Assembly: GCA_964629265.1 (NCBI GenBank)
Contig: CAZVQM010000001.1
Coordinates: forward strand, 1-56,622
Direction of reading: 5' to 3'
Source: an uncultured Candidatus Saccharibacteria bacterium
GTDB lineage: Bacteria; Patescibacteriota; Minisyncoccia; Sungbacterales; HO2-52-23
Length of the DNA: 56,622 nucleotides
The stretch's first letter is position 1; each line of letters starts with the position of its first letter. The position numbers and the translations under genes are program-made. The notes under the pieces were generated by a model. The model made no database searches and was not told the origin of the DNA. It was given only the letters and a program-made list of their open reading frames with translations. This document shows positions 8,914 through 41,457 of this stretch, piece after piece.

Positions 8914-9540
8914 TTACTCGCTCTCGTCTTTGTCGCCGATGGACGAAAGGCGTTCTTCCACCGTCATATAGAACCGCGCGGGATTCCCGATGACGATAAC
9001 GCCCGAGGGCACGTCTTTTGTGACGACCGCCGCCGCTCCGACCAAACTCCCTTCCCCTATGACGACACCGGGAAGTATTATTGCACCCACGCCTATATAG
9101 GCGCCCCTTCGTATCACTGGCCCTGCGCGGACTTTTCTTTTTTCCGGAAGAAACGTGTATTTGAGATCAGCCATGACAACGCCAGGCGCTATTTTCACGT
9201 CATCTTCGATCACGGTATGCTCCGCAATAAAACAGCGCGAATGAATACGGACGTTCGATCCGATCGTTGCAAAAGGAGAAATCTCGGAACCAGAGCCGAT
9301 CGAGACGTTCCGCCCGACTGACACACGCTCGCGAATAACGGCGTGGTGTCCGGTGGAGAACGAATCGCCAATCGTCCCTCCGGCATATACCGCGGTCCCG
9401 TGGCGCAACACAGCGCCTTTTCCGATGGAAAGCGGGAGCTCCCCGGACCGCGCCCCGCGCGGCGGAATACCCAAAGAGACCCACTCCTCTATGGTGGACC
9501 CATCGCCTACAGAAACATTGGGATGAATTTTATACTTCAC
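8914..9540 (-). CDS. Left-handed beta-helix (hexapeptide) sugar N-acetyltransferase (WbpD-like)
   Basis: Repeated hexapeptide pattern ('VSIGSGSEISPFATIGSNVRIHSRCFIAEHTVIEDDVKIAPGVVM'). The GTG at 9540 forms a GTGA overlap with the upstream stop and is preferred over the track start at 9585. Confidence 0.8.
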   Translation of the reverse strand: MKYKIHPNVSVGDGSTIEEWVSLGIPPRGARSGELPLSIGKGAVLRHGTAVYAGGTIGDSFSTGHHAVIRERVSVGRNVSIGSGSEISPFATIGSNVRIHSRCFIAEHTVIEDDVKIAPGVVMADLKYTFLPEKRKVRAGPVIRRGAYIGVGAIILPGVVIGEGSLVGAAAVVTKDVPSGVIVIGNPARFYMTVEERLSSIGDKDESE

Positions 9541-10979
9541 ACAGAAAGACCCTTGATTACACGCGCTCTTCGCCGTTTTATCCAATCATACCCTATAACG
9601 CATGAAAAGGAAGAAAGGATAAACATGAGGGAATTGACCGGGTAGCGCAGCCGTCCCTGGTCAGAAAACGCGCCAACCATGCTTGTTGTAGCATAATAGC
9701 CGATGAGCACGACGAAGACGAGCGCTGCGGCGCGCTCCTTCCCGCCACGCAAAACCGCAACCGCCGCGCCGCCGATCCATGCGAAAAATACGGCGAGCCA
9801 AAACATGCGGCCAACGATAGGAATCGCAAAATATGGCCCGAGATGCTCGCGCGCCATGCGATAAAACTCACCAAATCCTTTCGTGAATATGGTAACAAGC
9901 GGATTAAACGTGAGATTACGATCGGGGATCACACGGAAGTGGCCCAAATACGACGTATAGAGGTCTTGGGTAAAGAATGCCTGTCCTGCAACAACAAGGA
10001 CCACCGTTGCTTCTTTCGGATGCTCCCGAATAATGCGAAATCCCTCTTGCGCGAGAACGCTTCCCCACCGCGGGTCCTCCCGAACCTCCTTGACACTTAC
10101 GCCGTAGCGCTCGGCAATGCCGCCAAGAAGCTCCTGACGAACGTCACCAAACTCCGTGCCGGTCGCCACGGTTATGACCGAGACCGCGAAATCCGAATAG
10201 ACATTGCGCAAACCAGTTGTCGCAACGCTAACGGTCCCGAAGTAATAATAGTTCCTGATAAGCCACGGCGAGAGGATGAGAAAAAACGAAACCGCGAAGA
10301 GAAAGACCGGCAGCATGCGCTTCCGCACAGCACCCATCGCCCATAAACCCGCTTCCGGTCTTTTCCATGACAAAAGAACGGAGCAAAAAAGGATCGCTAC
10401 AAAAATAAGAAACACAAATTGCCCGTGCGGACGCGTGAGCGTCGAAAAACCGAGAAAAACGGCGGAAAAAATAGCATCGCGCGACGCGCCGCTTTCGCGA
10501 AGCCGAAGGAAAAAATAGAGCGACGCCGCCATAGTGAAGCCCGCAAGCATCTCCGTTGTCGGCACAATACTCCATAAAATCATCTGCGGCTCAAATGCGG
10601 CCAGCGCCGCTGCGATTGTGCGGACACGCCGGTCCTCGGTGAAGCGCCCCGCGATCCCCCATACGACGAGAGGAAGAAGTGAACCGAGTATCACGTGAAC
10701 AAGAACTGCGGGAACAAAAGACCCCGACGCCCAAAGAGACCCCGCAAGGAAAGATAAAAAAAGCGGCGGGAAAAACGCCGAGGGCTCGAAGGGCGGCTCG
10801 CCAAGGGTAAATCCATGACCCGCGACAAGGGCGTCCGCGATTTTATAAAACCGCGGAGCGTCAGAAACCAAGAGCGACTCTTCTCCCAAGAACCACACCG
10901 CCGAACCAAAGAGCGCAAGCCGCACGAAAAATGCGATGCCAATGATTATCCAAACGGCACGAGGAATATTCCTCATCAT
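9537..10979 (-). CDS. GT-C fold membrane glycosyltransferase (ArnT/PMT, GT39/GT83-like)
   Basis: 480 aa and polytopic (more than 10 hydrophobic segments). The N-terminal 'FFVRLALFG...DAPRFYKIADAL' region resembles the ArnT/PMT_2 family. It sits next to the GT2 / deacetylase / aminotransferase set. Confidence 0.6.
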   Translation of the reverse strand: MMRNIPRAVWIIIGIAFFVRLALFGSAVWFLGEESLLVSDAPRFYKIADALVAGHGFTLGEPPFEPSAFFPPLFLSFLAGSLWASGSFVPAVLVHVILGSLLPLVVWGIAGRFTEDRRVRTIAAALAAFEPQMILWSIVPTTEMLAGFTMAASLYFFLRLRESGASRDAIFSAVFLGFSTLTRPHGQFVFLIFVAILFCSVLLSWKRPEAGLWAMGAVRKRMLPVFLFAVSFFLILSPWLIRNYYYFGTVSVATTGLRNVYSDFAVSVITVATGTEFGDVRQELLGGIAERYGVSVKEVREDPRWGSVLAQEGFRIIREHPKEATVVLVVAGQAFFTQDLYTSYLGHFRVIPDRNLTFNPLVTIFTKGFGEFYRMAREHLGPYFAIPIVGRMFWLAVFFAWIGGAAVAVLRGGKERAAALVFVVLIGYYATTSMVGAFSDQGRLRYPVNSLMFILSSFSCVIGYDWIKRRRARVIKGLSV

Positions 10980-10989
10980 GCGCCCGCGA

Positions 10990-12051
10990 TCATACGATAA
11001 AATTTTCTACAATAACCGTGTCTTCCGGAATATCAACCTTCGCTGTTTTCCCGATGACCGTGTGCATATGCGCGGGTTTTATGCCGTAGCCCGGACTCTT
11101 TATCGTAAGCACGTCCGCAGTAATAACAGTTCCCGCGCGAATCGCGCCGCGAGAAACAACGCTTTTCCCGTGCTTATTGAGCATGCCGATCTCCTTTTCG
11201 TCACAGCGAACTTCGGTATCGGCGACCGCCTTCTCAATGCGCCGGATCTGCGAACACATCATGGTGAATTCAAACGGATCCAAACTTACCGTCGAGTGAT
11301 CCGGACCGGGAAGCGTCTTATCAAGCGTGAAATGCCGCTCAACAGACACCACACCGAGCGCAACTGCCGCTATGGTTGGAATAAATCCAAGCTCATGCCC
11401 GGAATATCCCACGGGGATCGGCTGATAACGCTCTTTGAGCGTCTTTATCGCGCCGATATTCAAATTCTCATCCGGCGTCGGGTAGATTGAAACGCACTGC
11501 TTGATGATAAGATTCCTATTATGCTCGAGGACGGTATTCACCGCGTCGTCGATCTCATCCAGGGTGGCGGTACCCGTCGACAAAAATAAGGGCTCGGGGT
11601 TTCTTGCAACGAATTCGAGAAGCGGTTTTGTGCGAAGATCAAACGACGCGATCTTCCAGCAATCCATGCCGATGCTTGCAAGGATCTCGGCGCTTTTCAA
11701 ATCAAACGGAGTCACGAAAAACGCAACACCCAAAGAATGAGCATACTCTTTGAGACCCGCAATCTCCTCATCCTTCAACTCCTGGGTAAGTCGATACTCC
11801 TCGTAGGTCTTCCCGAACGAGCGTGAATGCGCCTGATTTTTTTCAAGAAGCTCTCGCGCAAAAACGTCCCGTACGGTCCGCTTCTGAAACTTTACGGCGT
11901 CTGCTCCGGCGTGCGCCGCGGCCTCAATCGAACGGCGGGCCAAATTGATATTCCCGTTATGGTTATTTCCGATTTCTGCAACGATAAACACGGGATGTCC
12001 GGGACCTATCTTTTTGTTGAAAATGGTTACGACTGGTGAAGGCGTATTCAT
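10990..12051 (-). CDS. NeuB-family ulosonic acid synthase (N-acylneuraminate / KDN(-9-P) synthase-like) with C-terminal SAF domain
   Basis: Motif 'FIVAEIGNNHNGNINLARRSIEAAAHAGADAVKFQKR' and a C-terminal SAF-like 'IRAGTVITADVLTIKSPGYGI'. The ATG at 12051 (MNTPSPV) is preferred, because the track start at 12174 overlaps the upstream gene by ~100 nt. Confidence 0.85.
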   Translation of the reverse strand: MNTPSPVVTIFNKKIGPGHPVFIVAEIGNNHNGNINLARRSIEAAAHAGADAVKFQKRTVRDVFARELLEKNQAHSRSFGKTYEEYRLTQELKDEEIAGLKEYAHSLGVAFFVTPFDLKSAEILASIGMDCWKIASFDLRTKPLLEFVARNPEPLFLSTGTATLDEIDDAVNTVLEHNRNLIIKQCVSIYPTPDENLNIGAIKTLKERYQPIPVGYSGHELGFIPTIAAVALGVVSVERHFTLDKTLPGPDHSTVSLDPFEFTMMCSQIRRIEKAVADTEVRCDEKEIGMLNKHGKSVVSRGAIRAGTVITADVLTIKSPGYGIKPAHMHTVIGKTAKVDIPEDTVIVENFIV

Positions 12052-12070
12052 GTAGGTATAGTAAAACCCT

Positions 12071-13993
12071 TTATGTTTCTTTTTCGATTCGCTCTGCAAT
12101 AGATTCGAAATCGAGTTTGTGATATTGTAATACTTCGCTGTTGTGTCCGCAGGCGGGAATCTCCTCGACGCCAAGCGAAAGAATGCGCTGTCCCTTCATG
12201 TGCGGGGCAAGCGCGCTCCGAATCTGCATGCCTTGGCCAAGCGACACATAGTGATCATCAATGGTAACGACCAGTGGATACCCGTTAAGCGCCTTTGACA
12301 ACCATGCGCTGTCTACCCGATTCAGCCATGGAAAATTCATAACCGCCGTAGAAATCCCTTTCCCCCGAAGAAGCTCAACGGCTTTTACGGCTTCGGTCAT
12401 CATCACCGGGCCATAGGCCATAATGAGGACATCGGTTCCTTGAACCAATAACGCCCCCTTCCCAATCTCAAGCTCATACTTTTCTGGTAGGCGGTACGGC
12501 GCCTCACTCGCAACGCTCACAAACCGGATATAGGTTGATTCCGGATTTTTTTCAACAGCCCAGCGGATTGCCATACGCGCTTCACGCTCATTTGCGGGCT
12601 CAATCGCGACAAGACCAGGTATTCCGCCGAGCGCGGATATATCCCGGACGGACTGATGGGAATGCCCCGGCATTCCTGGAAGAAGCCCGGCAAGCGTCCC
12701 TACATAAATAATTCTTTTTTTCTCAGTCGCATTATTGTATATATGCTCATTTGGCCGCGTTGAAACAAAAGCGGCAAACGAATGCGCAATGGGAAGCATC
12801 CCTTGGAGCGCAATGCCGCCCGCCATTGAAACCATATCCTGCTCTGCAATGCCGCATTCTACAAAACGGTCTGGGAATTCATTTTTAAACGCGAGAACGC
12901 CGGTATCCGGAATCAAATCCGCATCGAGCACTACCACGTCTTTCCGTTCACGGCCGATTTTAAGAAGCTCGTCACCATATGCCGGAATCAGACGTTCCAC
13001 CGTTCCGGGCATAGTCGTTGCTGGCATCATCGCCGATTCGAACTGAAGCACATCAAGGCCCGTGCTTTTCAAATTGGAATTCGCCCGATCCCGTATTTCC
13101 TCGAACGCAGCGACATACTGCTCGTACGCCGGCGCGCCGGAATGGAATTTATATGTTCCGTCCGCATCCATGCGCTCCATGAAAGAAACCCCCTTCCCCT
13201 TGATCGTATCTGCAATAAGCATCTGGGGGCGGTCACCCACGGTCTTTGCTCGATCAAAAGCTTTTTTCAATGCATAAAAATCGTGCCCGTCGCAACGCAA
13301 AACCTCCCAACCAAAATCGCGAAATCTCTGCTCAATGGCACTAACGTCATTTAAATCACTTACCCAACTGTCAGACTGAATCTTGTTATGATCAACGATC
13401 GCAGTAATTTCGGAATATTTTCCGTTTACCGTCGGCTGGAGCGATTCCCAAATCTGTCCCTCTTGTAGCTCACCATCTCCCGTGAGAACATAGACGCGAC
13501 CTGATTTCCCCTGAAGACGTTTTGCCTTTGCCATTCCGCGAGCCTTTGAAATCCCCATGCCCAAGGAACCGGTGTTTGCCGCGATATACGGCGTCCCCGT
13601 ATCCGGATGCCCGGGAAGGCCGCCCAAACGGCGAAGTTTGTGAATCATCTCAAAATCAAGCTTTTCAAGACCTATTAAAATTGAATAGAGCGCTGGAACG
13701 TCGTGCCCCTTTGAAGAAAAATAGATATCGCTCGGGTCCTTTCCGCTTTCATTAGGGTTCCGCAATTCTTGCGTCCAAAGCCAGGTGGCAATATCGATCG
13801 AGCTGAAGCTTGACCCGATATGACCCGAATTCGTGCTTCGGATCATGTAGAGCGCGTTTATCCGGAATACGTCCGAAAGAACCCAGGCAAGCAAAAAAGG
13901 GTCCGAAATGCTTTTCCGGATCCTTTGAATTTCAGAAAGAGGAACGTAGTATAACGTTTTTTCGGATAATGCGGCTGATGTGAGTTCGCTCAT
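12071..13993 (-). CDS. Transketolase-family ThDP enzyme (N- and C-terminal halves fused, 640 aa)
   Basis: Motifs 'NSGHIGSSFSSIDI' and 'VLTGDGELQEGQIWES' (ThDP/Mg GDG motif). The pyrimidine-binding half contains 'ECGIAEQDMVSMAGG'. Confidence 0.85.
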   Translation of the reverse strand: MSELTSAALSEKTLYYVPLSEIQRIRKSISDPFLLAWVLSDVFRINALYMIRSTNSGHIGSSFSSIDIATWLWTQELRNPNESGKDPSDIYFSSKGHDVPALYSILIGLEKLDFEMIHKLRRLGGLPGHPDTGTPYIAANTGSLGMGISKARGMAKAKRLQGKSGRVYVLTGDGELQEGQIWESLQPTVNGKYSEITAIVDHNKIQSDSWVSDLNDVSAIEQRFRDFGWEVLRCDGHDFYALKKAFDRAKTVGDRPQMLIADTIKGKGVSFMERMDADGTYKFHSGAPAYEQYVAAFEEIRDRANSNLKSTGLDVLQFESAMMPATTMPGTVERLIPAYGDELLKIGRERKDVVVLDADLIPDTGVLAFKNEFPDRFVECGIAEQDMVSMAGGIALQGMLPIAHSFAAFVSTRPNEHIYNNATEKKRIIYVGTLAGLLPGMPGHSHQSVRDISALGGIPGLVAIEPANEREARMAIRWAVEKNPESTYIRFVSVASEAPYRLPEKYELEIGKGALLVQGTDVLIMAYGPVMMTEAVKAVELLRGKGISTAVMNFPWLNRVDSAWLSKALNGYPLVVTIDDHYVSLGQGMQIRSALAPHMKGQRILSLGVEEIPACGHNSEVLQYHKLDFESIAERIEKET

Positions 13994-14198
13994 ACGTATT
14001 TATTAGAACAAGAAGAGGATAAAAAGGGTTTCTTAAAATGCACCAATCGGATTATCGCGAAAGATATGAACAAGAACTTCCGCGCGCAAAAATGTATCAG
14101 AAACGGAATTCCGTACACGGTCAATTTCATGCATCGAAACGCGGAAAAGCAAGTTTGCCATTGTATATTTAGAACGAATTTATTGCTTTTATAGTTTC

Positions 14199-14235
14199 AA
14201 AAAAATGAGGGGTCCCGCATACGCGAGAACCCCTC
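14199..14235 (-). terminator. Rho-independent terminator after the orphan gene
   Basis: On the minus strand, GAGGGGT...ACCCCTC (7-bp stem, 14207-14235) is followed by A + TTTTTTT (14199-14205). Confidence 0.65.
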
Positions 14236-14260
14236 GGTCTTGTGACGAAACCCTCCTTGC

Positions 14261-15364
14261 CTACTTGGTGTAGGCCTTGATTTGCGCCTTGAGGAACATC
14301 TTAAGACGATTGGTCGAGCAACCATCCATGAGGCCGCTGAAGTGCTCGGCGCAGGCCTCGCCCATAGCCGTGAAGTAGCCGTCCTCGCCCTCGAACATAC
14401 GCTCGAGAGTCGAGTCGAATGCATCCACGTGCCACACTGCCTCGGCCGCGCCAACCGCGATCTGCGGAAAGAATGGCCATCTGCCACCGCGCGTCCGCTG
14501 ATAGTAGCGCATCGAGGGCAAGAGCACGAACGCCGTAGGAATGATGAGGGAGGACTTCACTCCCTCTGTCGAGTACTGGACCACCGCGACGTCTGCGCCC
14601 ACGAAGTCCGGGACGCCCGACATGACGCGCTCACCGATGGTGTGGCCGATGTCCGCACGGTCGAGAAGATCCCGCATCATACCCTCAAGCTCGTCCTTCT
14701 CCGGATCCGCCGGGTGAAACGAGCCAAGAATGTATGCAGGAGGAAAGAGATGCTTGACAGATCCCACGAGCGCATCGATAGTCGCCTCCATCTCTGTCTT
14801 GTCGAACTGGTTCGAGGAAGAGGCCGCGAAGTACACGATCCTCGCATCCGACGGAAGGTTGAGGCGGCTTCGCATCTGGGCGCAGATGGCGACACGATTC
14901 TTGCCATACTCTGCGATGTCGTCGTATGACGCATTGCCGAGCGCGACCACGCTGTCAGGACCAAGATCTGGCCGCGCGCGGAGCGCGAGCTTGCGGCCGG
15001 ACTCGTCGAGCGTTGTGAGCCAGGTTGGCACGAGATCTCGTACCGCGGCCTCACACCCCGACATGTAGAAGTCCCCGCACCAGATGACCGGCTTCCCGGC
15101 CTTGAGCGCCGCGGCAGACGCATTCTTCCAGAGGGTCTGCGCCTTGCCGTTCGTGCCGGAGATGACAAGGGCGTAGCGGCTCACATCGATCTCCGTGGCC
15201 TCGATGAACGGGATCCCGAGGCGAGTGAGGTGCTTCTTCCCGGCGCCCTTGGGATCGAGGAAGACCTCGATCAATAGTCCCTCGCTGATGAGCTGACTCA
15301 CGGGCTCCCCGATGCACTCCACCGTACCTAGATCTCCGAAGCACACCGCCGCCTTCTTTTCCAT
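14261..15364 (-). CDS. Hypothetical protein, family not recognised (two-Rossmann-like layout), GC3-rich
   Basis: 367-aa ORF with AAGGAG 8 nt upstream of the ATG, plus its own promoter and flanking terminators. Codon third positions are strongly G/C-biased (AAG, GAG, ATC, CTC), unlike its neighbours. Confidence 0.75.
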   Translation of the reverse strand: MEKKAAVCFGDLGTVECIGEPVSQLISEGLLIEVFLDPKGAGKKHLTRLGIPFIEATEIDVSRYALVISGTNGKAQTLWKNASAAALKAGKPVIWCGDFYMSGCEAAVRDLVPTWLTTLDESGRKLALRARPDLGPDSVVALGNASYDDIAEYGKNRVAICAQMRSRLNLPSDARIVYFAASSSNQFDKTEMEATIDALVGSVKHLFPPAYILGSFHPADPEKDELEGMMRDLLDRADIGHTIGERVMSGVPDFVGADVAVVQYSTEGVKSSLIIPTAFVLLPSMRYYQRTRGGRWPFFPQIAVGAAEAVWHVDAFDSTLERMFEGEDGYFTAMGEACAEHFSGLMDGCSTNRLKMFLKAQIKAYTK

Positions 15365-15421
15365 CCCTCTTCTCCTTGTCGTTCGAGTTTGGAGCTACAC
15401 TGGAGGATTCCAGCAGAATAT

Positions 15422-15449
15422 AGTATACAAATTTTCCAAAAAAAGTCAA
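15422..15449 (-). promoter_or_regulatory. Near-consensus sigma70-type promoter for the orphan gene
   Basis: On the minus strand: TTGACT (15449-15444), a 16-nt spacer ending in TG, then TATACT (15427-15422). The ATG at 15364 follows about 57 nt downstream. Confidence 0.5.
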
Positions 15450-15450
15450 G

Positions 15451-15475
15451 AAAAATCCGGTGCGTACGCGCCGGA
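15451..15475 (-). terminator. Rho-independent terminator after the aldolase gene
   Basis: On the minus strand, a TCCGGCGCG-TA-CGCACCGGA hairpin (15456-15475, one G-U pair) is followed by TTTTT (15451-15455), directly abutting the -35 of the next promoter. Confidence 0.65.
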
Positions 15476-15488
15476 AATCAAAACTTGT

Positions 15489-16172
15489 CTATTGCGTGCG
15501 GGCTTCGACTACCTCACAAACCGCGAGCTTTGCGTTTTGCGTGACGCTCGCCCAGTCGCTTGACTTCACCGCATCAGAGATGCCGAGACTCGGCACAACA
15601 AAGAGATACCCCGCGCGGAGAAACGCGCCAATAACATCAATGTCCACGCCGCCCGTCACGATGAATTCCATCCTCGGGAATATCCCGCGAAACTCGCTCA
15701 AGAACTTGAGGTTTGCTTTGATGCCCAGCGAGGGCATGGGCATGAAAAGCTTCACCATCATGACGCCGAGGCTCATCGCAATTCGTACCTGGCTATCGTC
15801 GCGAGCACCGGGGACTACGAGAACACCGCAGAGATTCGCAATCTTGATAACTCCCTCATCCGTGAGATTGCTCACGAGGAATTCCGCACCCGCGTCAATC
15901 GCGCCCTGCGCCCGTTCAGAGGTCTGAACCGTGCCCGCTCCAACGATGAGTGCGTCTCCGAAATGCCTGCGCGCTTCATAGATCGCATCGGTGTTCACGC
16001 GCGGGGGCGTGTTTTTGTACGGACGGAGAAGAATCTCCATGAACGGGATTCCGCCTTCAAGAAGCGCCTCGCCCACTCGGAGGTAATCAGAAACACTCCC
16101 GGCATTCACCGTCGGAACAAGCCCGTGCGCGCGCATGATTTCAAGGACCTCGAGCCGCCTCATCACCGCCAT
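15489..16172 (-). CDS. KDPG/KHG (Eda) family class I pyruvate aldolase
   Basis: Motifs 'GGIPFMEILLR' (Eda 'LEVTLR' Glu equivalent) and 'LIVGAGTVQTSERAQGAIDAGAEFLVS'. The Schiff-base Lys context 'MMVKLFMP' corresponds to Eda 'KFFPA'. Confidence 0.8.
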   Translation of the reverse strand: MAVMRRLEVLEIMRAHGLVPTVNAGSVSDYLRVGEALLEGGIPFMEILLRPYKNTPPRVNTDAIYEARRHFGDALIVGAGTVQTSERAQGAIDAGAEFLVSNLTDEGVIKIANLCGVLVVPGARDDSQVRIAMSLGVMMVKLFMPMPSLGIKANLKFLSEFRGIFPRMEFIVTGGVDIDVIGAFLRAGYLFVVPSLGISDAVKSSDWASVTQNAKLAVCEVVEARTQ

Positions 16173-16236
16173 CGCTTCCTCCTAAAAAGATCTCCTTACG
16201 ATTCGTACCGCGGAAAATAATCTCTGTCAAGCGTCG

Positions 16237-17700
16237 TTATATTTTTTCCGAATCGTAATCCACGCTCACCTGCTTCCACTCGGAATAAAATTCAAGCGCT
16301 TTGGTTCCGGGTTCTCTCCATCCGTTGCCCGAAAGACCGATGCCGCCAAAGGGCATATGCGGCTCGGAGCCGTGCGTCGGGCCGTTTACCCGAACAACGC
16401 CTGCGCGGTAGCGGCGTACAAATTCCTCTGCACGGTGAATTGATGCGGTATGGATCGCGCCGGAGAGTTTGAATTTCGAATCATTGGCGAGCTGGATCGC
16501 TTCTTCAAGATTTCTCACGCGATATAAAATAACGACAGGGCCGAAGAGCTCATCCAAGGAAATCTCGTCTTTCGGCGATACACGCTCAAATACCGTCGGA
16601 GAAATGAAAAACCCTTTTTTATGCATGTCGTCCGCAAGGCGCACGCCGCCCGCAAGAAGAACTCCTCGCCGCTTTTGCGCGCCGCGAACGGCATTCAAAA
16701 TTTCTTTCATTCGTTTCTCTGAAATAATTGCGCCGTAGTCGTCGGTATCCGCGGTGCCGATTTTGAGCGCATTCACCTTTTGTAGAAAGAGCTTCTTGAA
16801 TTTCTCATATACTTTGTCGAATACGATAATGCGCGATGCCGCGGCGCACCGCTGGCCTGCATCAACAAATGCTGCGGCGACCGCAACTGCCGCTGCTTTT
16901 TCCAAATCCGCATCATCACACACCACAAAAGGATTTTTCCCTCCCGCTTCAATAGAGACCTTGGCAAGGCGAGGCGCGGTCGCTTTGAGGATTTTCTGTC
17001 CGGTCGCGGCAGAGCCGGTTAAGCTCACAAATTCGATTCTCGGATCCGCGACCAATGGCGCGCCGATCTCCGGCCCCGTTCCCTGAAGAACGGAGATAAC
17101 GCCAGCCGGAACGCCCGCCTCCTTGAAAACTTTCGCGTACCATACCGCGACATACGGCGTATATTCATGCGACTTCACAATAACGGCGTTTCCGCAGAGT
17201 AGCGCGGGAAAAATCTTCCATGCAACTCCTGCCGCAGGATTATTGAATGGTGTAATGAGTGCTCCTATACCGACGGGCTCGCGAACCATTTTTACGCTTC
17301 GATTCGGAACTGCGGTTGGAAGTACCTCGCCGAAAAATCGCCTTCCCTCGCCAGCAAAGAAAAATCCGCATTCAATCGCGGCGTCAACCTCCCCAAGGGC
17401 TGATTTTTTTGATTTTCCGGATTCGCGCGCGACGATCTCGGCAAGTTCTTCTTTTCGCGCCTGCATGAGGAACACAGCGCCGCGAAGGATCTCCGCACGC
17501 TTCACAACAGAAATCTCCGACCATGCCTCAAATCCTTTTTCAGCTGATCTCAAAACTTTTTCAACATCCCGCCTATCCCCTTTCGCGACCAAAACAAAAA
17601 CCTCTCCTGTCGCAGGATTTACTTTCGGAAAGAATTTGTTCGATGCCGGACGAACCTCCTTCCCGTCTATCCAGTGAAAAATCTTCTTCGGGTAAGCCAT
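16237..17700 (-). CDS. NAD(P)+ aldehyde dehydrogenase
   Basis: Catalytic motifs 'VSIEAGGKNP' (Glu) and 'FVDAGQRCAAASR' (Cys). The ATG at 17700 (MAYPKKIF) is preferred over the track start at 17742. Confidence 0.9.
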   Translation of the reverse strand: MAYPKKIFHWIDGKEVRPASNKFFPKVNPATGEVFVLVAKGDRRDVEKVLRSAEKGFEAWSEISVVKRAEILRGAVFLMQARKEELAEIVARESGKSKKSALGEVDAAIECGFFFAGEGRRFFGEVLPTAVPNRSVKMVREPVGIGALITPFNNPAAGVAWKIFPALLCGNAVIVKSHEYTPYVAVWYAKVFKEAGVPAGVISVLQGTGPEIGAPLVADPRIEFVSLTGSAATGQKILKATAPRLAKVSIEAGGKNPFVVCDDADLEKAAAVAVAAAFVDAGQRCAAASRIIVFDKVYEKFKKLFLQKVNALKIGTADTDDYGAIISEKRMKEILNAVRGAQKRRGVLLAGGVRLADDMHKKGFFISPTVFERVSPKDEISLDELFGPVVILYRVRNLEEAIQLANDSKFKLSGAIHTASIHRAEEFVRRYRAGVVRVNGPTHGSEPHMPFGGIGLSGNGWREPGTKALEFYSEWKQVSVDYDSEKI

Positions 17701-17710
17701 AAGAGGGACT

Positions 17711-18544
17711 CTAGCGCGCAGTCCACCCGCCGTCAACCACAAGGGTTGAACCAGTCATATACGACGATGCTTTGTGCGACGCGAGAAACAATACAGCCCC
17801 GTTATACTCGTCACCATGAGCCATTCTCCCAAGGATTGTACGGGCATTATACCCGCGGACAAACTCCTCGTTTTGATCTGCATATACCCCTCCGGGAACA
17901 AGGGTATTTACCCGGATCCCAAACGGAGCCCCATATTCTGCGAGCCAGCGGGTAAAATTTAGCATTCCTGATTTTGCAACGCTATACCCAACTGGCTTAA
18001 AATACACCTCGCCCGCCTTTCGACGAAAATCGTAAATTGACTGGTCGGGGGTTACAACGCCATACGTGGAAGAAATATTTATAATACTTCCCTGTTGTCC
18101 TCCTCCTGTACGGTATGCTCGAATGAATTCTTGAGAAACAAAAAATGCACCTTTCAGATGAGAATCAAGAAACGCATCCCATGCGGATTCAGGCACGTCT
18201 TCAAACGGGCCGTTCGCTGCAACAGAGGCATCCGGCGGCGAATCAAGGCCCGCATTGTTGATAAGGATGGAAGGCACGCCAAATTTCTTTACCACCTCGT
18301 CTACCGCACGACGCACCTCTTCTTTTTTTGTTATATCAACAGGTAACGAAAGAAACCGGGCGCCGTTAGAAACCAATTTTTCGGTAGTCGGATTTTTTCT
18401 TTCCGCAATGTCAAAACTGACCACCGCGGCTCCCGCATGCGCAAGAGTCGAAATATACTGACTTCCCAACCTTCCGAGACCGCCGGTGACAATCGCGACT
18501 TCACCGTCGAGATTATACATATCAGAAATAAAATCCTTATTCAT
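17711..18544 (-). CDS. Short-chain dehydrogenase/reductase (classical SDR)
   Basis: Motifs 'VAIVTGGLGRLGSQY', 'NNAG' ('ILINNAGL') and YxxxK in 'GYSVAKSG'. The ATG at 18544 has AGAGGA 8 nt upstream. The track start is 18559. Confidence 0.85.
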   Translation of the reverse strand: MNKDFISDMYNLDGEVAIVTGGLGRLGSQYISTLAHAGAAVVSFDIAERKNPTTEKLVSNGARFLSLPVDITKKEEVRRAVDEVVKKFGVPSILINNAGLDSPPDASVAANGPFEDVPESAWDAFLDSHLKGAFFVSQEFIRAYRTGGGQQGSIINISSTYGVVTPDQSIYDFRRKAGEVYFKPVGYSVAKSGMLNFTRWLAEYGAPFGIRVNTLVPGGVYADQNEEFVRGYNARTILGRMAHGDEYNGAVLFLASHKASSYMTGSTLVVDGGWTAR

Positions 18545-18582
18545 ACGTTTTCCTCTCATGGAGACCCTCTTTTTATAGAACG

Positions 18583-18611
18583 ATTATAGTCCGGAAAAGG
18601 TATTCGGGCAA
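18583..18611 (-). promoter_or_regulatory. Putative sigma70-type promoter for the SDR-ALDH-aldolase unit
   Basis: On the minus strand: TTGCCC (18611-18606), a 17-nt spacer, then TATAAT (18588-18583). Confidence 0.45.
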
Positions 18612-18696
18612 GCATTTCTCATATAATAGCATTGACATCTATTACATTTCGTGTCACAAATAGGCCCAGTACCTACTACTCTCTGGAGGTGGCATC

Positions 18697-19770
18697 ATGG
18701 AACTCTTCGGCCGTTTGGGTGATTTCTGGATCTCCTTCGGATGGCTTATCATCCTTGGCACGGTCTCCATGGCGTTCATCGGCATTTTCAAACGGGCGAT
18801 CATGAAGTCGAATACCCTTTCCGTGCTCCAATACCTCATACTCTGGTATGCGATGACAACCGCACTCTTCGGGGCTGTCTATATCGCGCTCTGGGGATTT
18901 ACGCTTCCTCAGCTTCTTCCGGGGTTTTTCCGGACAGTACTTGCCGGTGCGTTCGTAAACGTCGGCATCCAATTCGCAAACGCGAAAGCGGCATCCCTTG
19001 ACGCAGGCGAAGTGTCGCTCACAGCGCCGCTTCAAGCAATGACGCCGGGGCTTATCACGCTTCTCGCGCTTACCCTTGGCGAATTTCCAAGTGCGCTTGG
19101 CGTTACGGGCATCATAATCATGGCATCCGGGTCATGGATTCTCATGTTCCAAAAGACCCCCCAGGGAACATACGAATATCTCGGCCCGATCCGCGAACTC
19201 AAATATCTCTGGCTACGCAATGCCACGGGCAGCGTGCAGGCAAGCGGAGTACGATCCGTCAACTCGGGAAAGGCGCTCGTTGTCCGCCTTGCGCTCCTTT
19301 CAGCGTCGCTCGGGACCTTCGGACTTCTCATGGATGGCCTCTTTACCCGAAGAGGCATAACCCTCCAAGGACTTACGCTCGGCGCACTAATCTTCACGGC
19401 AATCTTCACCGCCTCCTATGCGGTTTGGTACATCCTCAGGCCAGATGCGACTCCGGAACAAAAAGCCAAAGCAGTTCCTTACTTCATCGCCTATCCCGGC
19501 ATCATCCTCTTCCTAGCCGCAAGTATCGCGTGGATTCTCCATATTCTTCTCGTTAACCCAGCGTACACGCATACCTATGTTGCCTACGTGGGGACGCTCA
19601 AACGCTTCAGCATTCTCATGTCAGTCGTTCTCGGAAACATCATCTTCCGGGAACAGGATTTCAAGAAGCGCTTCTGGGCAAGCGTTCTCATCATCGGAGG
19701 CGCGATACTCATCTCAATGGATGACCTCCCACAACGCCTTTCAGCAAAAATCGAACTCTTCGGATTCTAG
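18697..19770 (+). CDS. Polytopic membrane protein, possibly a DMT/EamA-type transporter
   Basis: 357 aa with about 10 hydrophobic segments and GGAGG 7 nt upstream of the ATG. The family assignment is tentative. Confidence 0.5.
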   Translation: MELFGRLGDFWISFGWLIILGTVSMAFIGIFKRAIMKSNTLSVLQYLILWYAMTTALFGAVYIALWGFTLPQLLPGFFRTVLAGAFVNVGIQFANAKAASLDAGEVSLTAPLQAMTPGLITLLALTLGEFPSALGVTGIIIMASGSWILMFQKTPQGTYEYLGPIRELKYLWLRNATGSVQASGVRSVNSGKALVVRLALLSASLGTFGLLMDGLFTRRGITLQGLTLGALIFTAIFTASYAVWYILRPDATPEQKAKAVPYFIAYPGIILFLAASIAWILHILLVNPAYTHTYVAYVGTLKRFSILMSVVLGNIIFREQDFKKRFWASVLIIGGAILISMDDLPQRLSAKIELFGF

Positions 19771-19776
19771 CCAAAA

Positions 19777-19808
19777 ACCGCCACGCGCAAGCGCGAGCGG
19801 TCTTTTTC
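19777..19808 (+). terminator. Rho-independent terminator after the membrane protein gene
   Basis: GC-rich interrupted hairpin ACCGC(ca)CGCG-CAAG-CGCG(a)GCGGT (19777-19801) followed by CTTTTTC. Confidence 0.6.
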
Positions 19809-19814
19809 TTACTA

Positions 19815-19979
19815 AAGACCTTTTGCAAAATAACATTCTGGCTCATTTCCCCAAATTTCGGCTGCAAAGGACTCATCGGAACTTACCGTACTTATATCAA
19901 GTACGCCTACATTCCTCTTCGCCCTTTTCGCTCGAAATTTGTGAAAATTATCACAAAAACTTATTTTGCAAAAGGTCTT
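19815..19979. repeat. 165-nt concentric nested palindromic element (element A)
   Basis: Perfect 19-bp terminal inverted repeat AAGACCTTTTGCAAAATAA (19815-19833 / 19961-19979). Inner IR AAATTTCG/CGAAATTT (19853-19860 / 19933-19940). Central hairpin CGTACTT-ATATC-AAGTACG (19887-19905). All three share the same centre at ~19896.5. Confidence 0.8.
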
Positions 19980-19987
19980 AAATGTCC

Positions 19988-20557
19988 CTATCGAAGCGCA
20001 AGCGTAGCAACATCTCTTCCCTGTGCTTCCAGGATGAAATTTGCGAGATCACGAATTGCGCCGTCCCCACCGCGGCGCTTTGCGACAAAATGCACGCGTT
20101 TTTTTATTATGTCCTCGGCCTGTAGAGGCGCGGCGGCGAGCTCGACTTCCTTGAGAATCTCGTAGTCAGTCATGTCATCACCCATTGCCGCACAATCACC
20201 AAACGTAAGTCCATGTGAAGCAAGCCATGTCTTTGCTGTTTCTACTTTTGCTTTACGCTCTACCCCGGAAAAAACCGCTATCGGCTCCCACGTTCCGGAC
20301 GCGACCGAAGACAAACTATTCCATTTCTTGACCAAATTTTCCAGAAATGAAGCATTCACACCAGACTCACCGGTAATACAGCAAACCACAATTCCGATTC
20401 CCCGAAGAAGAGATATCCCCTGCCCGTCCGCGTGGCTGCGGATTTTTGCAAGCGGCCCTTCGGGCCCCTCAATCACGTGGCCGGTAAAAATAACGCCGTC
20501 GCTATCAAGAACCAAGGCCTTTATCTTTTTTGCACGCTCTTGCAGTGATGCATTCAT
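19988..20557 (-). CDS. HAD-IIIA phosphatase, KdsC / ulosonate-phosphate phosphatase family
   Basis: Motifs 'IKALVLDSDGVIFTG' (DxD nucleophile), 'ITGES', 'AAMGDDMTDYEIL' and 'RRGGDGAIRDLANFILEAQG', colinear with KdsC. Confidence 0.8.
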   Translation of the reverse strand: MNASLQERAKKIKALVLDSDGVIFTGHVIEGPEGPLAKIRSHADGQGISLLRGIGIVVCCITGESGVNASFLENLVKKWNSLSSVASGTWEPIAVFSGVERKAKVETAKTWLASHGLTFGDCAAMGDDMTDYEILKEVELAAAPLQAEDIIKKRVHFVAKRRGGDGAIRDLANFILEAQGRDVATLALR

Positions 20558-20578
20558 AAAAAAGTTTCGATATGTAAA

Positions 20579-21304
20579 CTATGCATGCGCAATGACTCCT
20601 TTTTCAAGAAGCGCCTCCGCGATCGCAAAATCCAATTCCGAATCAATATCAAGGGCGTAGAGATAAGGAATAATATGGTATCCGCTTCGTTCTCCGTAGA
20701 GAAGTTTTCTCTCCTTGAGAACCGAGGTTCGCGTCACAATGATATTTCCTCGGAAATATGCTTTCTCATGTTTCTGGCGGGCATTGGGGTAGGTATTGAG
20801 CGTATAGTGGTCATGGAATGGCGCAAGAGAATCCGCATCGGTAATCCGAAGCGCTTTACCGGGATGTTGACGCGCCTCTGCCACACCCATTACGGAATCA
20901 AGCTGGGGATTCTTCAGAAGAACCTCGATAGATGCATCGATATCCTCCGTACGTTGGAAGGGAACCGTGGGAATAAGGCGAACGACGATATTGGGAATAT
21001 AGCGCTCATTCGCTTCAAGCCAATTCACTGCATGAATAATATATTCAAAATCCGGAGATGTGTCACCAGAAATCTCCGCCGGACGGAGAAATGGCGCTTC
21101 GGCTCCGGAACGATTTGCAACCTCTGCATATTCTTTTGAATCAGTCGAAACAATAATCCGATTGATGTATTTCGATTCCCGCGCAGCACCAATAATCCAA
21201 CTCATGAGCGGTTTTCCGCCGAGCGGACGAATATTTTTATGAGGGATTCCTTTCGAGCCGGATCGCGCTCCGATAATGGCTAAAATTCTATTGCTTCCTG
21301 GCAT
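20579..21304 (-). CDS. Acylneuraminate (CMP-ulosonic acid) cytidylyltransferase family, copy 1
   Basis: Motif 'ILAIIGARSGSKGIPHKNIRPLGGKPLMSWII', the canonical NeuA/CMP-NeuAc synthetase N-terminus. Confidence 0.85.
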   Translation of the reverse strand: MPGSNRILAIIGARSGSKGIPHKNIRPLGGKPLMSWIIGAARESKYINRIIVSTDSKEYAEVANRSGAEAPFLRPAEISGDTSPDFEYIIHAVNWLEANERYIPNIVVRLIPTVPFQRTEDIDASIEVLLKNPQLDSVMGVAEARQHPGKALRITDADSLAPFHDHYTLNTYPNARQKHEKAYFRGNIIVTRTSVLKERKLLYGERSGYHIIPYLYALDIDSELDFAIAEALLEKGVIAHA

Positions 21305-21313
21305 ACAGATTTT

Positions 21314-22051
21314 TTATACAATAAAACCCCCCGGATCTTCTTTCAATTTCTCCATCAGTTTCTCCGCGATGAAAAAATCAAGAGGCGTATCGATATCAAT
21401 CGCATACGGCTTCGGAATCACATGGTACCGGACACGCTTCCCCGCCATTGATTTCTCTTCGACGAGCGTGCGCCATCTGAGCGCAATCACGTCAACGTGC
21501 TGAAAAGCTTTTGGAAACGACTGGCGCGGCATATTATGAGCATCCTTAAATCCCGTATGCTCTTCAGATAAAAACGGCTCGAGGTAACCATCGGTAGAGG
21601 CGCGCCATAATTTATAGGGGTGCTTTGAAACAGAGGCAATGGTGCGCGAAGAATCTGCTGACTGGTCATTTTTCAAAAGCTCTACGCAAGCGTCAATATG
21701 TTCCGGTCGGCACAAAGGCGTCGTCGGTGCAAGACGCAATATCACGTCCGCCTGCCATCCTTCGCGATCGCGAAGCGTGGTTGCCGCGTGATACAAGTAA
21801 TCAAAATCGGGCGTATGATCCTTTGCGAGTTCTTTCGGCCGTAAAAATGGAACTTCGATTCCCTGCTCGATTGCAAGATCCGCATACCGGGGTGAATCAG
21901 TAGACATGATAAGGCGCGTAACGGAATGGGACTGCTTTGCCGCATCCGCAATCCACGCAAATAAAGGCTTCCCGGCAAGCGGCCGGATATTCTTGTCTGG
22001 TACCCCTCGGGAACCAGAGCGCGCGCCAATGACTCCCAATACTTTCATCAA
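21314..22051 (-). CDS. Acylneuraminate (CMP-ulosonic acid) cytidylyltransferase family, copy 2
   Basis: Motif 'VLGVIGARSGSRGVPDKNIRPLAGKPLFAWIA'. It is a tandem paralogue of the preceding gene. Confidence 0.85.
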   Translation of the reverse strand: MMKVLGVIGARSGSRGVPDKNIRPLAGKPLFAWIADAAKQSHSVTRLIMSTDSPRYADLAIEQGIEVPFLRPKELAKDHTPDFDYLYHAATTLRDREGWQADVILRLAPTTPLCRPEHIDACVELLKNDQSADSSRTIASVSKHPYKLWRASTDGYLEPFLSEEHTGFKDAHNMPRQSFPKAFQHVDVIALRWRTLVEEKSMAGKRVRYHVIPKPYAIDIDTPLDFFIAEKLMEKLKEDPGGFIV

Positions 22052-38292: not shown

Positions 38293-39615
38293 CTACAAGG
38301 ATGCATGGAATTGTTTCTGAACGGAAAACGAAGGGAAATCAATGCGACTGAGAACATCGACTATCTTTTTTGCGGCAGTACCGTCTCCGAAAAGATTGGT
38401 TGAAGGATACGGGCCATATTCCAATTGCCACTCAATCACAGAACGAATGTCGTCGGCGTGAGCTTCTGCATCAATCACATTCACGCCCCGCTCGCGTCCA
38501 TCCTGGCGATTCCCCACGAGGACAACGGGAGTGCCGAAATATCCTCCCTCCCGCAGAAAACTGGAAGAATTTCCAACCGCAACCGCGGCATGTTTAAGAA
38601 TTCGACAAAAATCTTTTGGAGAAAATCCGCGAAAAAACACCGCCGTTGTCTTTGCGGCCGAATGCTGACGTTCACGATATTCCCGAATTGCCGAAGAAAT
38701 ACCGTCTTGACCTCCATCAATATTCGGAGCAATAAAAATCTTCGGCAGATCGAATACATCAACTGCTTTCAAAATACTCTCCATATTCTCATAGCTTGAC
38801 CGATATTCCGTGGTTACCGGATGTTGGGAAACAATAATAAATGGTTTGCGGAGATCAACGCCGCGGAGGTTATCCGCTTTCCATACCCCGGGGCCATGCA
38901 TATCACGAAATGGCTCGTTAAGCGACAGATCAATTCCCATCAAAAAATCAATAATAGGGGAACCGGCGAGGTGGACAGAGCGGGGGTCCTCACCCATTGC
39001 AAGAATACGCTCTTTTGATTTTTGCGTCACCGGAAAATGAATATGAGCCAATTTCGTAATCGCGTGGCGGACACTGTTATCGATTGTACCGGAAACGTCT
39101 CCGCCCTCGAGATGCGCAATCGGAATATTTAAAAACGCGGCTGCCATCGCGACCGGAAGTATCTCAAACCGATCGCCGTGAAGAAGCAAAACGTCTGGCC
39201 GAAGACTTTCAAAAATGTCCGGAATACCCAAGAGTCCGAAGGCGGCTGATTTGACCATTGTAGTAAGATTTCCACCTTCAAGAAACAAAGGAAGCCGCGC
39301 GCTGATCGGGAAACCATCAGCTGTAAGTACCCGCATAAGATACTCCATCTGATGAATTTCGTGATGAGGCTTCAGAAGCGCTGATGTGCGCGCACGAATA
39401 TACCATGGCAGAGAACGAAAAAACGACACCGGCTCTCCGTGGCGAAGATACCAGAGGAGGTGGTCGAAAAAGAGCGGGGTTCCAACAATAACCTGAAGCT
39501 CAAAATTTGGATGATTTTGAACAGCCCCCATAACGGGTTTGAGCCGTCCATAATCGGCGCGGCTTGTTGTGACAACACAAATTTTTTTCTTTTTCGTTAC
39601 TTCACGTGATTCCAT
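38293..39615 (-). CDS. UDP-N-acetylglucosamine 2-epimerase (hydrolysing), NeuC/LegG type, with an N-domain insertion
   Basis: Motifs 'KICVVTTSRADYGRLKPV', 'LLLHGDRFEIL', 'HLEGGDVSGTIDNSVRHAITKLAHIHF' and 'NSSSFLREG'. It is ~440 aa versus ~370-390 for typical NeuC. Confidence 0.85.
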   Translation of the reverse strand: MESREVTKKKKICVVTTSRADYGRLKPVMGAVQNHPNFELQVIVGTPLFFDHLLWYLRHGEPVSFFRSLPWYIRARTSALLKPHHEIHQMEYLMRVLTADGFPISARLPLFLEGGNLTTMVKSAAFGLLGIPDIFESLRPDVLLLHGDRFEILPVAMAAAFLNIPIAHLEGGDVSGTIDNSVRHAITKLAHIHFPVTQKSKERILAMGEDPRSVHLAGSPIIDFLMGIDLSLNEPFRDMHGPGVWKADNLRGVDLRKPFIIVSQHPVTTEYRSSYENMESILKAVDVFDLPKIFIAPNIDGGQDGISSAIREYRERQHSAAKTTAVFFRGFSPKDFCRILKHAAVAVGNSSSFLREGGYFGTPVVLVGNRQDGRERGVNVIDAEAHADDIRSVIEWQLEYGPYPSTNLFGDGTAAKKIVDVLSRIDFPSFSVQKQFHASL

Positions 39616-40640: not shown

Positions 40641-40646
40641 ATAATG

Positions 40647-41381: not shown

Positions 41382-41457
41382 GCAACAAATATAACGTATA
41401 CGGCTATTGAAAAGTTTTTGAGTTGACTGATTAAAAAATTGCGCTAATGCGCCACAT

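Follow-up and report, generated by a model that had tools for sequence, protein, structure and literature searches.

We analysed a stretch of 56,622 nucleotides (the window) on contig 1 of a groundwater Patescibacteria genome (742 kb in 120 contigs, 87% complete), whose proteins have Candidatus Wolfebacteria as their nearest named relatives. The approximately 56-kb window consists almost wholly of glycan genes; among them are two for NeuB synthases, one for NeuC and three for CTP_transf_3 cytidylyltransferases (referred to below as CMP-transferases, for cytidine monophosphate). A transketolase (TK), an aldehyde dehydrogenase (ALDH) and a short-chain dehydrogenase/reductase (SDR), situated between the first synthase (NeuB1) and two of the CMP-transferases, very probably belong to a NeuB-dependent biosynthetic cassette that recurs in many phyla. 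Our overall reading, to which we assign a probability of about 0.55, is that this cross-phylum cassette makes a CMP-activated, shortened and doubly acidic surface ulosonic acid, and that an aldolase and an orphan gene found between the ALDH and TK genes of the window are later add-ons. Ulosonic acids, such as Kdo (3-deoxy-D-manno-octulosonic acid) and the sialic, legionaminic and pseudaminic acids, shape the recognition of bacterial surfaces. Since a window of nearly only glycan genes takes up about 56 kb of a genome of about 0.74 Mb, surface sugars are evidently central to the episymbiotic life of this organism.

The cassette genes and the additional CMP-transferase adjacent to them are as follows.

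10990..12051, minus strand: NeuB1 (PF03102, 242.7 bits, plus a SAF domain)
12071..13993, minus strand: TK (Transketolase_N 119.5, Transket_pyr 97.1, Transketolase_C 60 bits)
16237..17742, minus strand: ALDH (PF00171 Aldedh, 477 bits)
17711..18559, minus strand: SDR (adh_short_C2, 136 bits)
19988..20557, minus strand: KdsC-type HAD phosphatase (NCBIfam models, all below their cut-offs)
20579..21304, minus strand: CMP-transferase a (PF02348, 90 bits)
21314..22051, minus strand: CMP-transferase b (PF02348, 85 bits)

Genes were taken from a listing of open reading frames (ORFs), and families were assigned by Pfam and NCBIfam scans of the window proteins; both bear out all gene positions and families named in an earlier reading of this DNA (the original prediction).

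In a scan of one genome per species, relatives of the TK were encoded in 569 genome stretches. The best 80 of them (50-67% identical) represent Patescibacteria and a dozen or more further phyla, the taxa including Cyanobacteriota (Moorena and the Vampirovibrio group), Gemmatimonadota, Acidobacteriota, Chloroflexota, Pseudomonadota, Nitrospirota, Planctomycetota, Verrucomicrobiota, Chlorobium, Bacteroidota, Myxococcota and Actinomycetota. Neighbours were counted within seven genes of TK in the 53 of these 80 loci that had at least five ORFs upstream and at least two downstream of it; the ORFs of each locus were called and then compared with the window proteins, and the HAD proteins were confirmed by Pfam. 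We observed NeuB (n = 41), SDR (n = 40) and ALDH (n = 38) near TK in most loci, as well as a phosphatase of the KdsC-like or HAD_2 type in at least 23 and a CMP-transferase in at least 37, the last being a lower bound, as spurious opposite-strand ORFs mask some. The commonest gene order is NeuB-(HAD)-SDR-ALDH-CMP-transferase-TK. Of the 38 loci with an ALDH near TK, most have one that shares 44-80% identity with the window ALDH, the sole ALDH of its genome.

The most compact example is provided by a 100% complete genome of the same order (G446), where CMP-transferase (69% identical to CMP-transferase b), SDR (62%), ALDH (64%), TK (58%), KdsC (40%) and NeuB (51%) form one gene run, while in Moorena bouillonii the cassette spans about 20 kb, still with a cassette-type ALDH (46%) and NeuB (36%). 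The synthase, KdsC-type phosphatase and CMP-transferase are all present in the window and recur with TK, SDR and ALDH in relatives. Hence by conserved synteny the cassette comprises TK, ALDH, SDR, NeuB1, the KdsC-type phosphatase and CMP-transferase b. As NeuB, CMP-transferase and HAD phosphatase recur beside TK in loci lacking the aldolase, the TK-ALDH-SDR trio is biosynthetic and NeuB-dependent. The original prediction, which had proposed an unusual keto-deoxy-sugar-acid route and a check of gene neighbourhoods in related genomes, is borne out in that SDR, ALDH and TK stay in glycan loci across many phyla, beside NeuB, CMP-transferase, HAD and candidate transferases; its suggestion that the route is independent of the phosphoenolpyruvate (PEP)-dependent NeuB fails, since NeuB is a core member (41/53 loci). 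No paper describing the cassette was found in the searchable full-text literature, which omits most subscription journals, and there the cassette appears to be undescribed.

The same neighbourhoods bear on the mundane reading also offered by the original prediction, in which SDR, ALDH, aldolase and a transporter form a non-phosphorylative deoxy-sugar breakdown cassette that happens to sit in a glycan locus. These are indeed the enzyme classes of such pathways, and the ALDH has sub-threshold matches to lactaldehyde and glyceraldehyde dehydrogenase models. However, across many phyla, glycan loci without the aldolase keep the SDR-ALDH pair beside NeuB, CMP-transferase and TK, and it was the neighbourhood in relatives by which the prediction itself had proposed to judge this reading. 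Moreover, no lactonase or sugar-acid dehydratase was seen among the annotated window genes, no ILVD/EDD (Edd-type) dehydratase was found in the window genome at its 87% completeness, and Eda-family genes are nearly absent from Patescibacteria, with one weak match in 400 sampled genomes. A catabolic role is contradicted by the conserved neighbourhood and extremely improbable.

Among the carriers, Moorena bouillonii PNG (NZ_MKZS01000001) and Chlorobium sp. KB01 are cultured and may serve as experimental handles. The cassette TK adjoins a CMP-transferase in both, and neither record is labelled as a metagenome bin. In Moorena bouillonii PNG the cassette-type ALDH and NeuB are located about 15-20 kb from the cassette TK.

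The TK had been described as a full-length transketolase. All three of its domains are indeed full, and the protein aligns over its whole length to human TK (HMMER, E 3e-61), the split TK of Carboxydothermus also being among the best solved relatives; however, it is not a canonical transketolase. Its best NCBIfam model, NF004559, gives 384.5 against a cut-off of 488, and TIGR00232 gives 164 against 682. In an alignment of the cassette TK family (79 members) the residues binding thiamine diphosphate (ThDP) and the catalytic motifs are invariant (GDGELQEG, N203, H58, H97, H129, H284 and E384, each 79/79). The pocket residues facing the substrate are replaced. In the yeast, Escherichia coli and human enzymes these residues hold the phosphate of the substrate and recognise its D-threo configuration. 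Those of human TK, as used to model its xylulose-5-phosphate complex, are listed in PMC8016368, and their counterparts in the cassette family are the following.

Human Ser345: D363 in the cassette TK (77/79)
Human His416: L434 (78/79)
Human Asp424: P442 (77/79)
Human Arg474: S493 (70/79)
Human Arg318: Ile or Val, with Arg or Lys two residues upstream (R/K334) in 70/79

The difference is visible within single genomes: the canonical TKs of Moorena and Chlorobium contain THDS...GEDGPTHQ, SRQ/TRQ and ADLAPS, and the cassette TKs of the same genomes SLAG...PGGPGHSHQ, VS and ADL(M/I)LD, the register of the ADL...S segment being derived from a motif search and the HMMER alignment to human TK rather than from MAFFT. 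Thus, the cassette TK shares with canonical transketolase (EC 2.2.1.1) the three-domain architecture and the ThDP-binding and catalytic residues, and differs from it by the Ser to Asp, His to Leu, Asp to Pro and Arg to Ser replacements, by the glycan-cassette setting and by being an extra paralogue in the tested carriers. Indeed, a better-scoring canonical TK is also encoded by G446, Moorena bouillonii and Chlorobium sp. KB01 (198-522 bits for Transketolase_N, versus 114-121 for the cassette copy). The Moorena and Chlorobium canonical TKs served as controls; the C-terminal subunit of the split housekeeping TK of G446 was not found in the stretch considered (L114). In the window genome a second TK is represented by an N-terminal fragment of 50 residues at the end of contig C53.

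A further candidate for a second TK, on contig C5, was rejected, as its Transket_pyr match adjoins an E1-alpha-like ORF. The two ORFs, at about 10900-12900 (L111), are an E1-alpha-like (343 aa) and a Transket_pyr/E1-beta-like (335 aa) one, and the pair is probably a 2-oxoacid dehydrogenase E1 rather than a split transketolase.

If the TK built a precursor, possibly together with the aldolase, it would supply or reshape a sugar phosphate for NeuB1, with SDR and ALDH tailoring the sugar before or after the condensation. This variant, close to the original prediction, draws on the fact that substrates and products of transketolases normally are sugar phosphates, on the KdsC-type phosphatase of the cassette, which indicates a phosphorylated ulosonate intermediate, and on R/K334, conserved in 70 of the 79 proteins near the canonical arginine position. 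Against it, three or four of the canonical residues that deal with phosphate and stereochemistry have been exchanged, and the new residues are themselves conserved; all carriers tested retain a canonical TK able to supply ordinary sugar phosphates; transketolases make ketoses while NeuB enzymes need an aldose; and the ALDH is left unaccounted for. For a TK that has kept its chemistry and lost its grip on phosphate, a pentose-phosphate role or a phosphorylated precursor is therefore unlikely, and the TK as a builder of a phosphorylated precursor is not upheld. Judging by its pocket, the cassette TK probably remodels the finished sugar instead.

The two dehydrogenases offer hints about what is done to that sugar. 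The SDR reaches no NCBIfam cut-off; among named models it scores best with those for D-mannonate oxidoreductase, gluconate 5-dehydrogenase and KduD, enzymes that turn the penultimate hydroxyl of a sugar acid into a ketone or back, and of the solved structures with an assigned function the nearest is that of a KduD-type 2-deoxy-D-gluconate 3-dehydrogenase. The ALDH likewise reaches no equivalog cut-off, the best models being alpha-ketoglutaric semialdehyde dehydrogenase (397 against 770) and 2,5-dioxovalerate dehydrogenase (379 against 750), both of which oxidise the far-end aldehyde of 2-keto acids. A search of the PDB with the ALDH or NeuB1 returned generic relatives only. The family leanings of SDR and ALDH would fit, if weakly, the chemistry proposed here.

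The simplest scheme that uses SDR, TK and ALDH together would be the following. NeuB1 would condense PEP with a common aldose phosphate, and the phosphatase would release a free C8 or C9 3-deoxy-2-ulosonic acid. The SDR would then oxidise the next-to-last hydroxyl, giving a HOCH2-CO- ketol tail of the type that transketolases cleave; the remodelled TK would remove this two-carbon ketol and leave an aldehyde stump, which the ALDH would oxidise to a second carboxylate. This would yield a 3-deoxy-2-ulosaric acid with two carbons fewer, to be activated by CMP-transferase b before or after the trimming and installed by a TagF-like transferase encoded elsewhere in the locus. By our own derivation, the tails of Kdo and of Kdn (2-keto-3-deoxynononic acid), read from the far end, present the configuration required of TK donors.

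The TK could also act in the opposite direction: if the SDR makes a terminal aldehyde, the TK could add a C2 ketol to it, yielding a C10 or C11 keto-ulosonic acid, and the ALDH would act on a side product or some other aldehyde. Transketolases are reversible, ketol addition to an aldehyde acceptor is their normal synthetic direction, and the enlarged, uncharged pocket would accommodate a bulky acceptor no less than a bulky donor. However, such chain extension leaves no role for the co-conserved ALDH (38/53 loci, usually immediately after the SDR), and the nearest named families of the SDR oxidise secondary, not primary, hydroxyls. Extension is very unlikely.

The enzymes proposed to act before and after trimming are the following. 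NeuB1 may be read from a TTG at 12174, and its family match begins near the ATG at 12051. It scores 297 bits with TIGR03569, under the cut-off of 399.65, and is 51-71% identical to the TK-adjacent NeuB of Patescibacteria relatives; by its family, it is a predicted PEP-condensing ulosonic-acid synthase, and it is a core member of the cassette. The best models of the HAD phosphatase at 19988-20557 are KdsC (75/208), the YrbI family (74.8/107) and KDN-9-P phosphatase NF058599 (68/180). CMP-transferases a and b are 45% identical to each other. CMP-transferase b, 69% identical to the head gene of the SDR-ALDH-TK-KdsC-NeuB operon of G446 and 57-62% identical to the CMP-transferases of three further loci (L020, L027, L031), is likely the cassette member that activates the product. 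The closest homologue of CMP-transferase a (48%) adjoins a homologue of the orphan in another genome (G421). The third CMP-transferase lies with the second NeuB and NeuC at 38293-41564 of the window. With two NeuB genes and three CMP-transferases, CMP-transferase a is left without an obvious synthase partner; it probably serves another ulosonic acid of the locus, and the inventory suggests that a genome of 0.74 Mb may provide for as many as three CMP-activated acids.

The same set of synthase, KdsC-type phosphatase and cytidylyltransferase is found in the route via Kdn-9-phosphate or N-acetylneuraminic acid (Neu5Ac)-9-phosphate (KDN-9-P synthase, KDN-9-P phosphatase and CMP-Kdn synthetase in Bacteroides thetaiotaomicron; NANS, NANP and CMAS in vertebrates), which starts from mannose-6-P or ManNAc-6-P and leads to Kdn or Neu5Ac. 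As in that route, the gene set implies that a phosphorylated ulosonate first loses its phosphate and then receives CMP. In contrast to the cassette, this route has no counterpart of the SDR, the ALDH or the remodelled TK, and the window phosphatase and synthase score under the equivalog cut-offs of its models (NF058599, 68/180; TIGR03569, 297/400). A precedent for oxidation at the far end of a finished ulosonic acid is provided by Kdo8N (8-amino-3,8-dideoxy-D-manno-octulosonic acid) in Shewanella, which is formed by the KdnB oxidase and the KdnA aminotransferase and, to our knowledge, involves no transketolase or ALDH. A product of the proposed type exists in nature: 3-deoxy-D-lyxo-hept-2-ulosaric acid (Dha), from plant rhamnogalacturonan II and some bacterial lipopolysaccharides, is a seven-carbon 3-deoxy-2-ulosaric acid for which we know of no biosynthetic route.

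One may go further and suppose that this cassette supplies the biosynthetic pathway still missing for 3-deoxy-2-ulosaric (Dha-type) sugars, the TK clipping the glycerol-like tail of a sialic-acid-type sugar and the Eda-family aldolase being dedicated to the di-acid or to released glycolaldehyde; we regard this extension as tentative and rather doubtful. By our derivation, what a Kdn precursor would yield is a stereoisomer of Dha rather than Dha. If true, the cassette would be an enzymatic counterpart of periodate trimming, and Patescibacteria with tiny genomes would display a doubly charged seven-carbon surface sugar. Cleavage of carbon-carbon bonds by transketolase, used in this way across phyla, would be a novel form of sugar tailoring, carried out by a textbook enzyme in a role not previously assigned to it, and the cassette could explain the origin of natural heptulosaric-type acids.

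In the window the cassette is interrupted, between ALDH and TK, by two genes and the signals around them. The window adds a split, insertion-bearing Patescibacteria variant of the cassette.

14199..14235, minus strand: terminator-like hairpin with a T-run, 3' of the orphan gene (read from the intergenic sequence)
14261..15364, minus strand: orphan, 367 aa (no Pfam match for the window copy; GT-B fold by AlphaFold2)
15420..15475, minus strand: terminator-like hairpin 3' of the aldolase, then promoter-like TTGACT-16-TATACT before the orphan (promoter scan and reading of the sequence)
15489..16172, minus strand: KDPG/KHG aldolase (PF01081, 85.9 bits, cut-off 27.8)

The aldolase resembles Eda (Thermotoga maritima TM0066, Escherichia coli Eda) in its class I TIM barrel, Schiff-base Lys, Glu, and pyruvate-holding Arg and Thr. 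The Schiff-base Lys (K141) and Glu (E46), which had been predicted to be conserved, are present and, together with R50 and T81, invariant in its clade. It differs from Eda by belonging to a separate clade, by insertions, by an unconserved phosphate loop, by the absence of an Entner-Doudoroff context and by the linkage to ALDH and TK. In particular, it scores 112.9 with TIGR01182, whose cut-off is 156; two insertions lie close to the active site, one of them after the 'TGG' position; and the phosphate-binding glycine loop varies within the clade (TGG, THG, SSG, TMS, TGV, TSG, TMG). Only 8 representatives in 1.84 billion match the aldolase with E <= 1e-30, and in a quick tree its clade splits from 106 other Eda-family representatives with an SH-aLRT of 98. 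The original prediction had called for a phylogenetic placement; against these representatives it yields a small separate Eda clade, and this clade is linked to cassette genes. The aldolase probably acts on an unphosphorylated 4-hydroxy-2-oxo acid, and the di-acid proposed above is a homologue of 4-hydroxy-2-oxoglutarate.

The nearest aldolase representatives mostly lie on contigs of 1-3 kb, so that partial flanking genes were used. A metagenome scan with the aldolase alignment yielded five loci, three of them from near-identical relatives, and close relatives retain the order ALDH-aldolase-orphan-TK. More divergent members also adjoin the cassette: one (L101, 38% identical) directly follows a cassette-type ALDH (71% identical), and another (L102, 39%) directly precedes a cassette-type TK. 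However, no Eda-type aldolase occurs in the best 80 TK loci, and no PF01081 gene is present in G446, which is 100% complete and has the whole cassette. Thus, the aldolase is a dispensable, lineage-restricted accessory, and the original view of it as a carbon-chain builder is not supported as far as a core role is concerned; nevertheless, a dedicated Eda clade travels with the cassette as a genetically tied accessory. In one further locus (L008, 1536-2657) a 40%-identical member of the clade is followed by a gene of the APH/choline-kinase fold (PF01636), a fold that includes sugar and Kdo kinases.

The orphan, as it was called in the original prediction, matches no Pfam family in its window copy, but it is not without a recognisable fold. 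Its AlphaFold2 model (pLDDT, the predicted local confidence score, 91.2; 91 when rounded) has a GT-B fold, and Foldseek ranks UDP-GlcNAc 2-epimerases and TagF as the nearest structures (E about 1e-11 to 1e-9, TM scores 0.54-0.66, identity 10-15%). It shares with these enzymes (WecB/NeuC and TagF) the GT-B fold of two Rossmann domains, and is distinguished from them by the low identity and a rare, patchy distribution. The family comprises 18 clusters; among 17 members, 6 weakly match Epimerase_2 (PF02350, best E 1e-5) and 4 match Glyphos_transf. His217, in the context 'FHPADP', is invariant, at about what we take to be the position of the conserved His of UDP-GlcNAc 2-epimerases. The model is consistent with either a nucleotide-sugar epimerase- or hydrolase-like (WecB/NeuC) enzyme or a TagF-like one, both of which match equally well. 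Searching 61 genomes of the order turned up just two distant homologues, and a sample of 400 genomes from the phylum turned up none; the best 80 TK loci contain no clear homologue, with a single match at 24%. The homologues in G446 and G421 adjoin TagF-like and CMP-transferase genes.

Given a promoter-like site of its own and terminator-like hairpins on either side, the orphan gene is apparently monocistronic. The GC content at third codon positions (GC3) is 0.79 in the orphan and 0.68 in the aldolase, compared with 0.44-0.58 in the cassette genes (the GC content of the genome is 49%). As their GC3 differs, both genes appear to have been inserted later into the space between ALDH and TK. Close Wolfebacteria relatives carry an inserted, toxin-antitoxin-like DUF4258/DUF2283 pair between ALDH and the aldolase (L005, 8595-9022; L006 and L007, 749-1167), and hence the ALDH-TK gap seems to be an insertion hot spot.

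As an alternative, the two genes could form a separate route that bypasses NeuB: the orphan would free a sugar from a nucleotide sugar, the aldolase would add pyruvate, and CMP-transferase a would activate the resulting third ulosonic acid. Such a route would match the three CMP-transferases against two NeuB genes, the adjacency of aldolase and orphan here and in close relatives, the high GC3 of both, and the G421 orphan homologue that adjoins a homologue of CMP-transferase a; a clade lacking a conserved phosphate loop would also suit an unphosphorylated sugar. However, the two genes are uncoupled elsewhere: the orphan is present in G446 and G421, where a PF01081 gene is lacking, and divergent aldolases adjoin the cassette ALDH or TK without an orphan where the flank is visible (L102). 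In the window itself a terminator and a promoter separate the two, and pyruvate aldolases of the Eda family thermodynamically favour cleavage, which disfavours the synthetic direction needed here. We consider this route quite unlikely.

Returning to the reading of the cassette as the source of a shortened di-acid, several points weigh against it. The tail-trimming chemistry is drawn from family logic only, and we would put it somewhat short of even odds. The substrate hints from SDR and ALDH are weak, since all scores lie below the cut-offs and many families score nearly alike. D98 and D363, conserved acidic residues of the TK pocket, disfavour a nearby carboxylate or CMP phosphate. Moreover, R/K334, present in 70 of 79 proteins, may substitute for the first canonical arginine, so that the loss of phosphate binding by TK is not proven. 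The chain length of the product would depend on the substrate of NeuB1, the C8 or C9 product being assumed. For the aldolase we can only guess among several roles: cleavage or re-formation of the di-acid, condensation of pyruvate with the glycolaldehyde released by TK, or a separate route. Finally, a divergent gene and the two insertions break the window cassette up into three or more transcription units.

This divergent gene and a promoter-like site lie between the SDR and the phosphatase.

18611-18583: promoter-like TTGCCC-17-TATAAT upstream of the SDR (promoter scan)
18697..19770, plus strand: EamA/DMT-fold membrane protein, 357 aa, divergent (no Pfam match)

The membrane protein is EamA/DMT-like by features and by its ten-helix EamA fold, in agreement with its earlier description as DMT-like (feature score 0.97 to EamA clusters; structural TM score 0.74 by query and 0.90 by target). 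Homologues (24-57% identical) are present in four Patescibacteria TK loci (L015, L021, L022 and L025), and the protein is thus an occasional companion of the cassette in Patescibacteria. Together with the Eda-clade aldolase and the GT-B protein, this DMT transporter represents the lineage-specific accessories of the window copy. All 19 sequencing runs considered for positions 11000-20600 were of groundwater or soil DNA, with no RNA run among them.

Candidates for the transfer of the product differ between lineages. Outside Patescibacteria, an ORF of 570-600 aa with a weak Capsule_synth (KpsC/KpsS-like) match follows TK/HAD_2 (L069, 12536-14326); equivalents occur in 16 of the 53 TK loci, and Pfam confirmed the weak match for one such ORF of 596 aa after TK. 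We regard the KpsC/S-like ORF as a candidate transferase for the cassette product. TagF-like ORFs are found in 9 of the 53 loci, and in Patescibacteria loci they take the place of this candidate. The window elsewhere contains three TagF-like genes, several aminotransferases and several methyltransferases. In a metagenome-assembled genome of the Vampirovibrio group a gene with a PAPS-reductase domain lies directly 3' of the cassette TK (L026, 11967-12914), a possible sign that this lineage adds another modification, with sulfur or adenylyl. Finally, a membrane glycosyltransferase of the GT-C (PMT_2-like) type at 9537-10979 adjoins NeuB1 in the window, and its homologues, 38-41% identical, adjoin the cassette in four Patescibacteria loci (L007, L014, L015 and L016).

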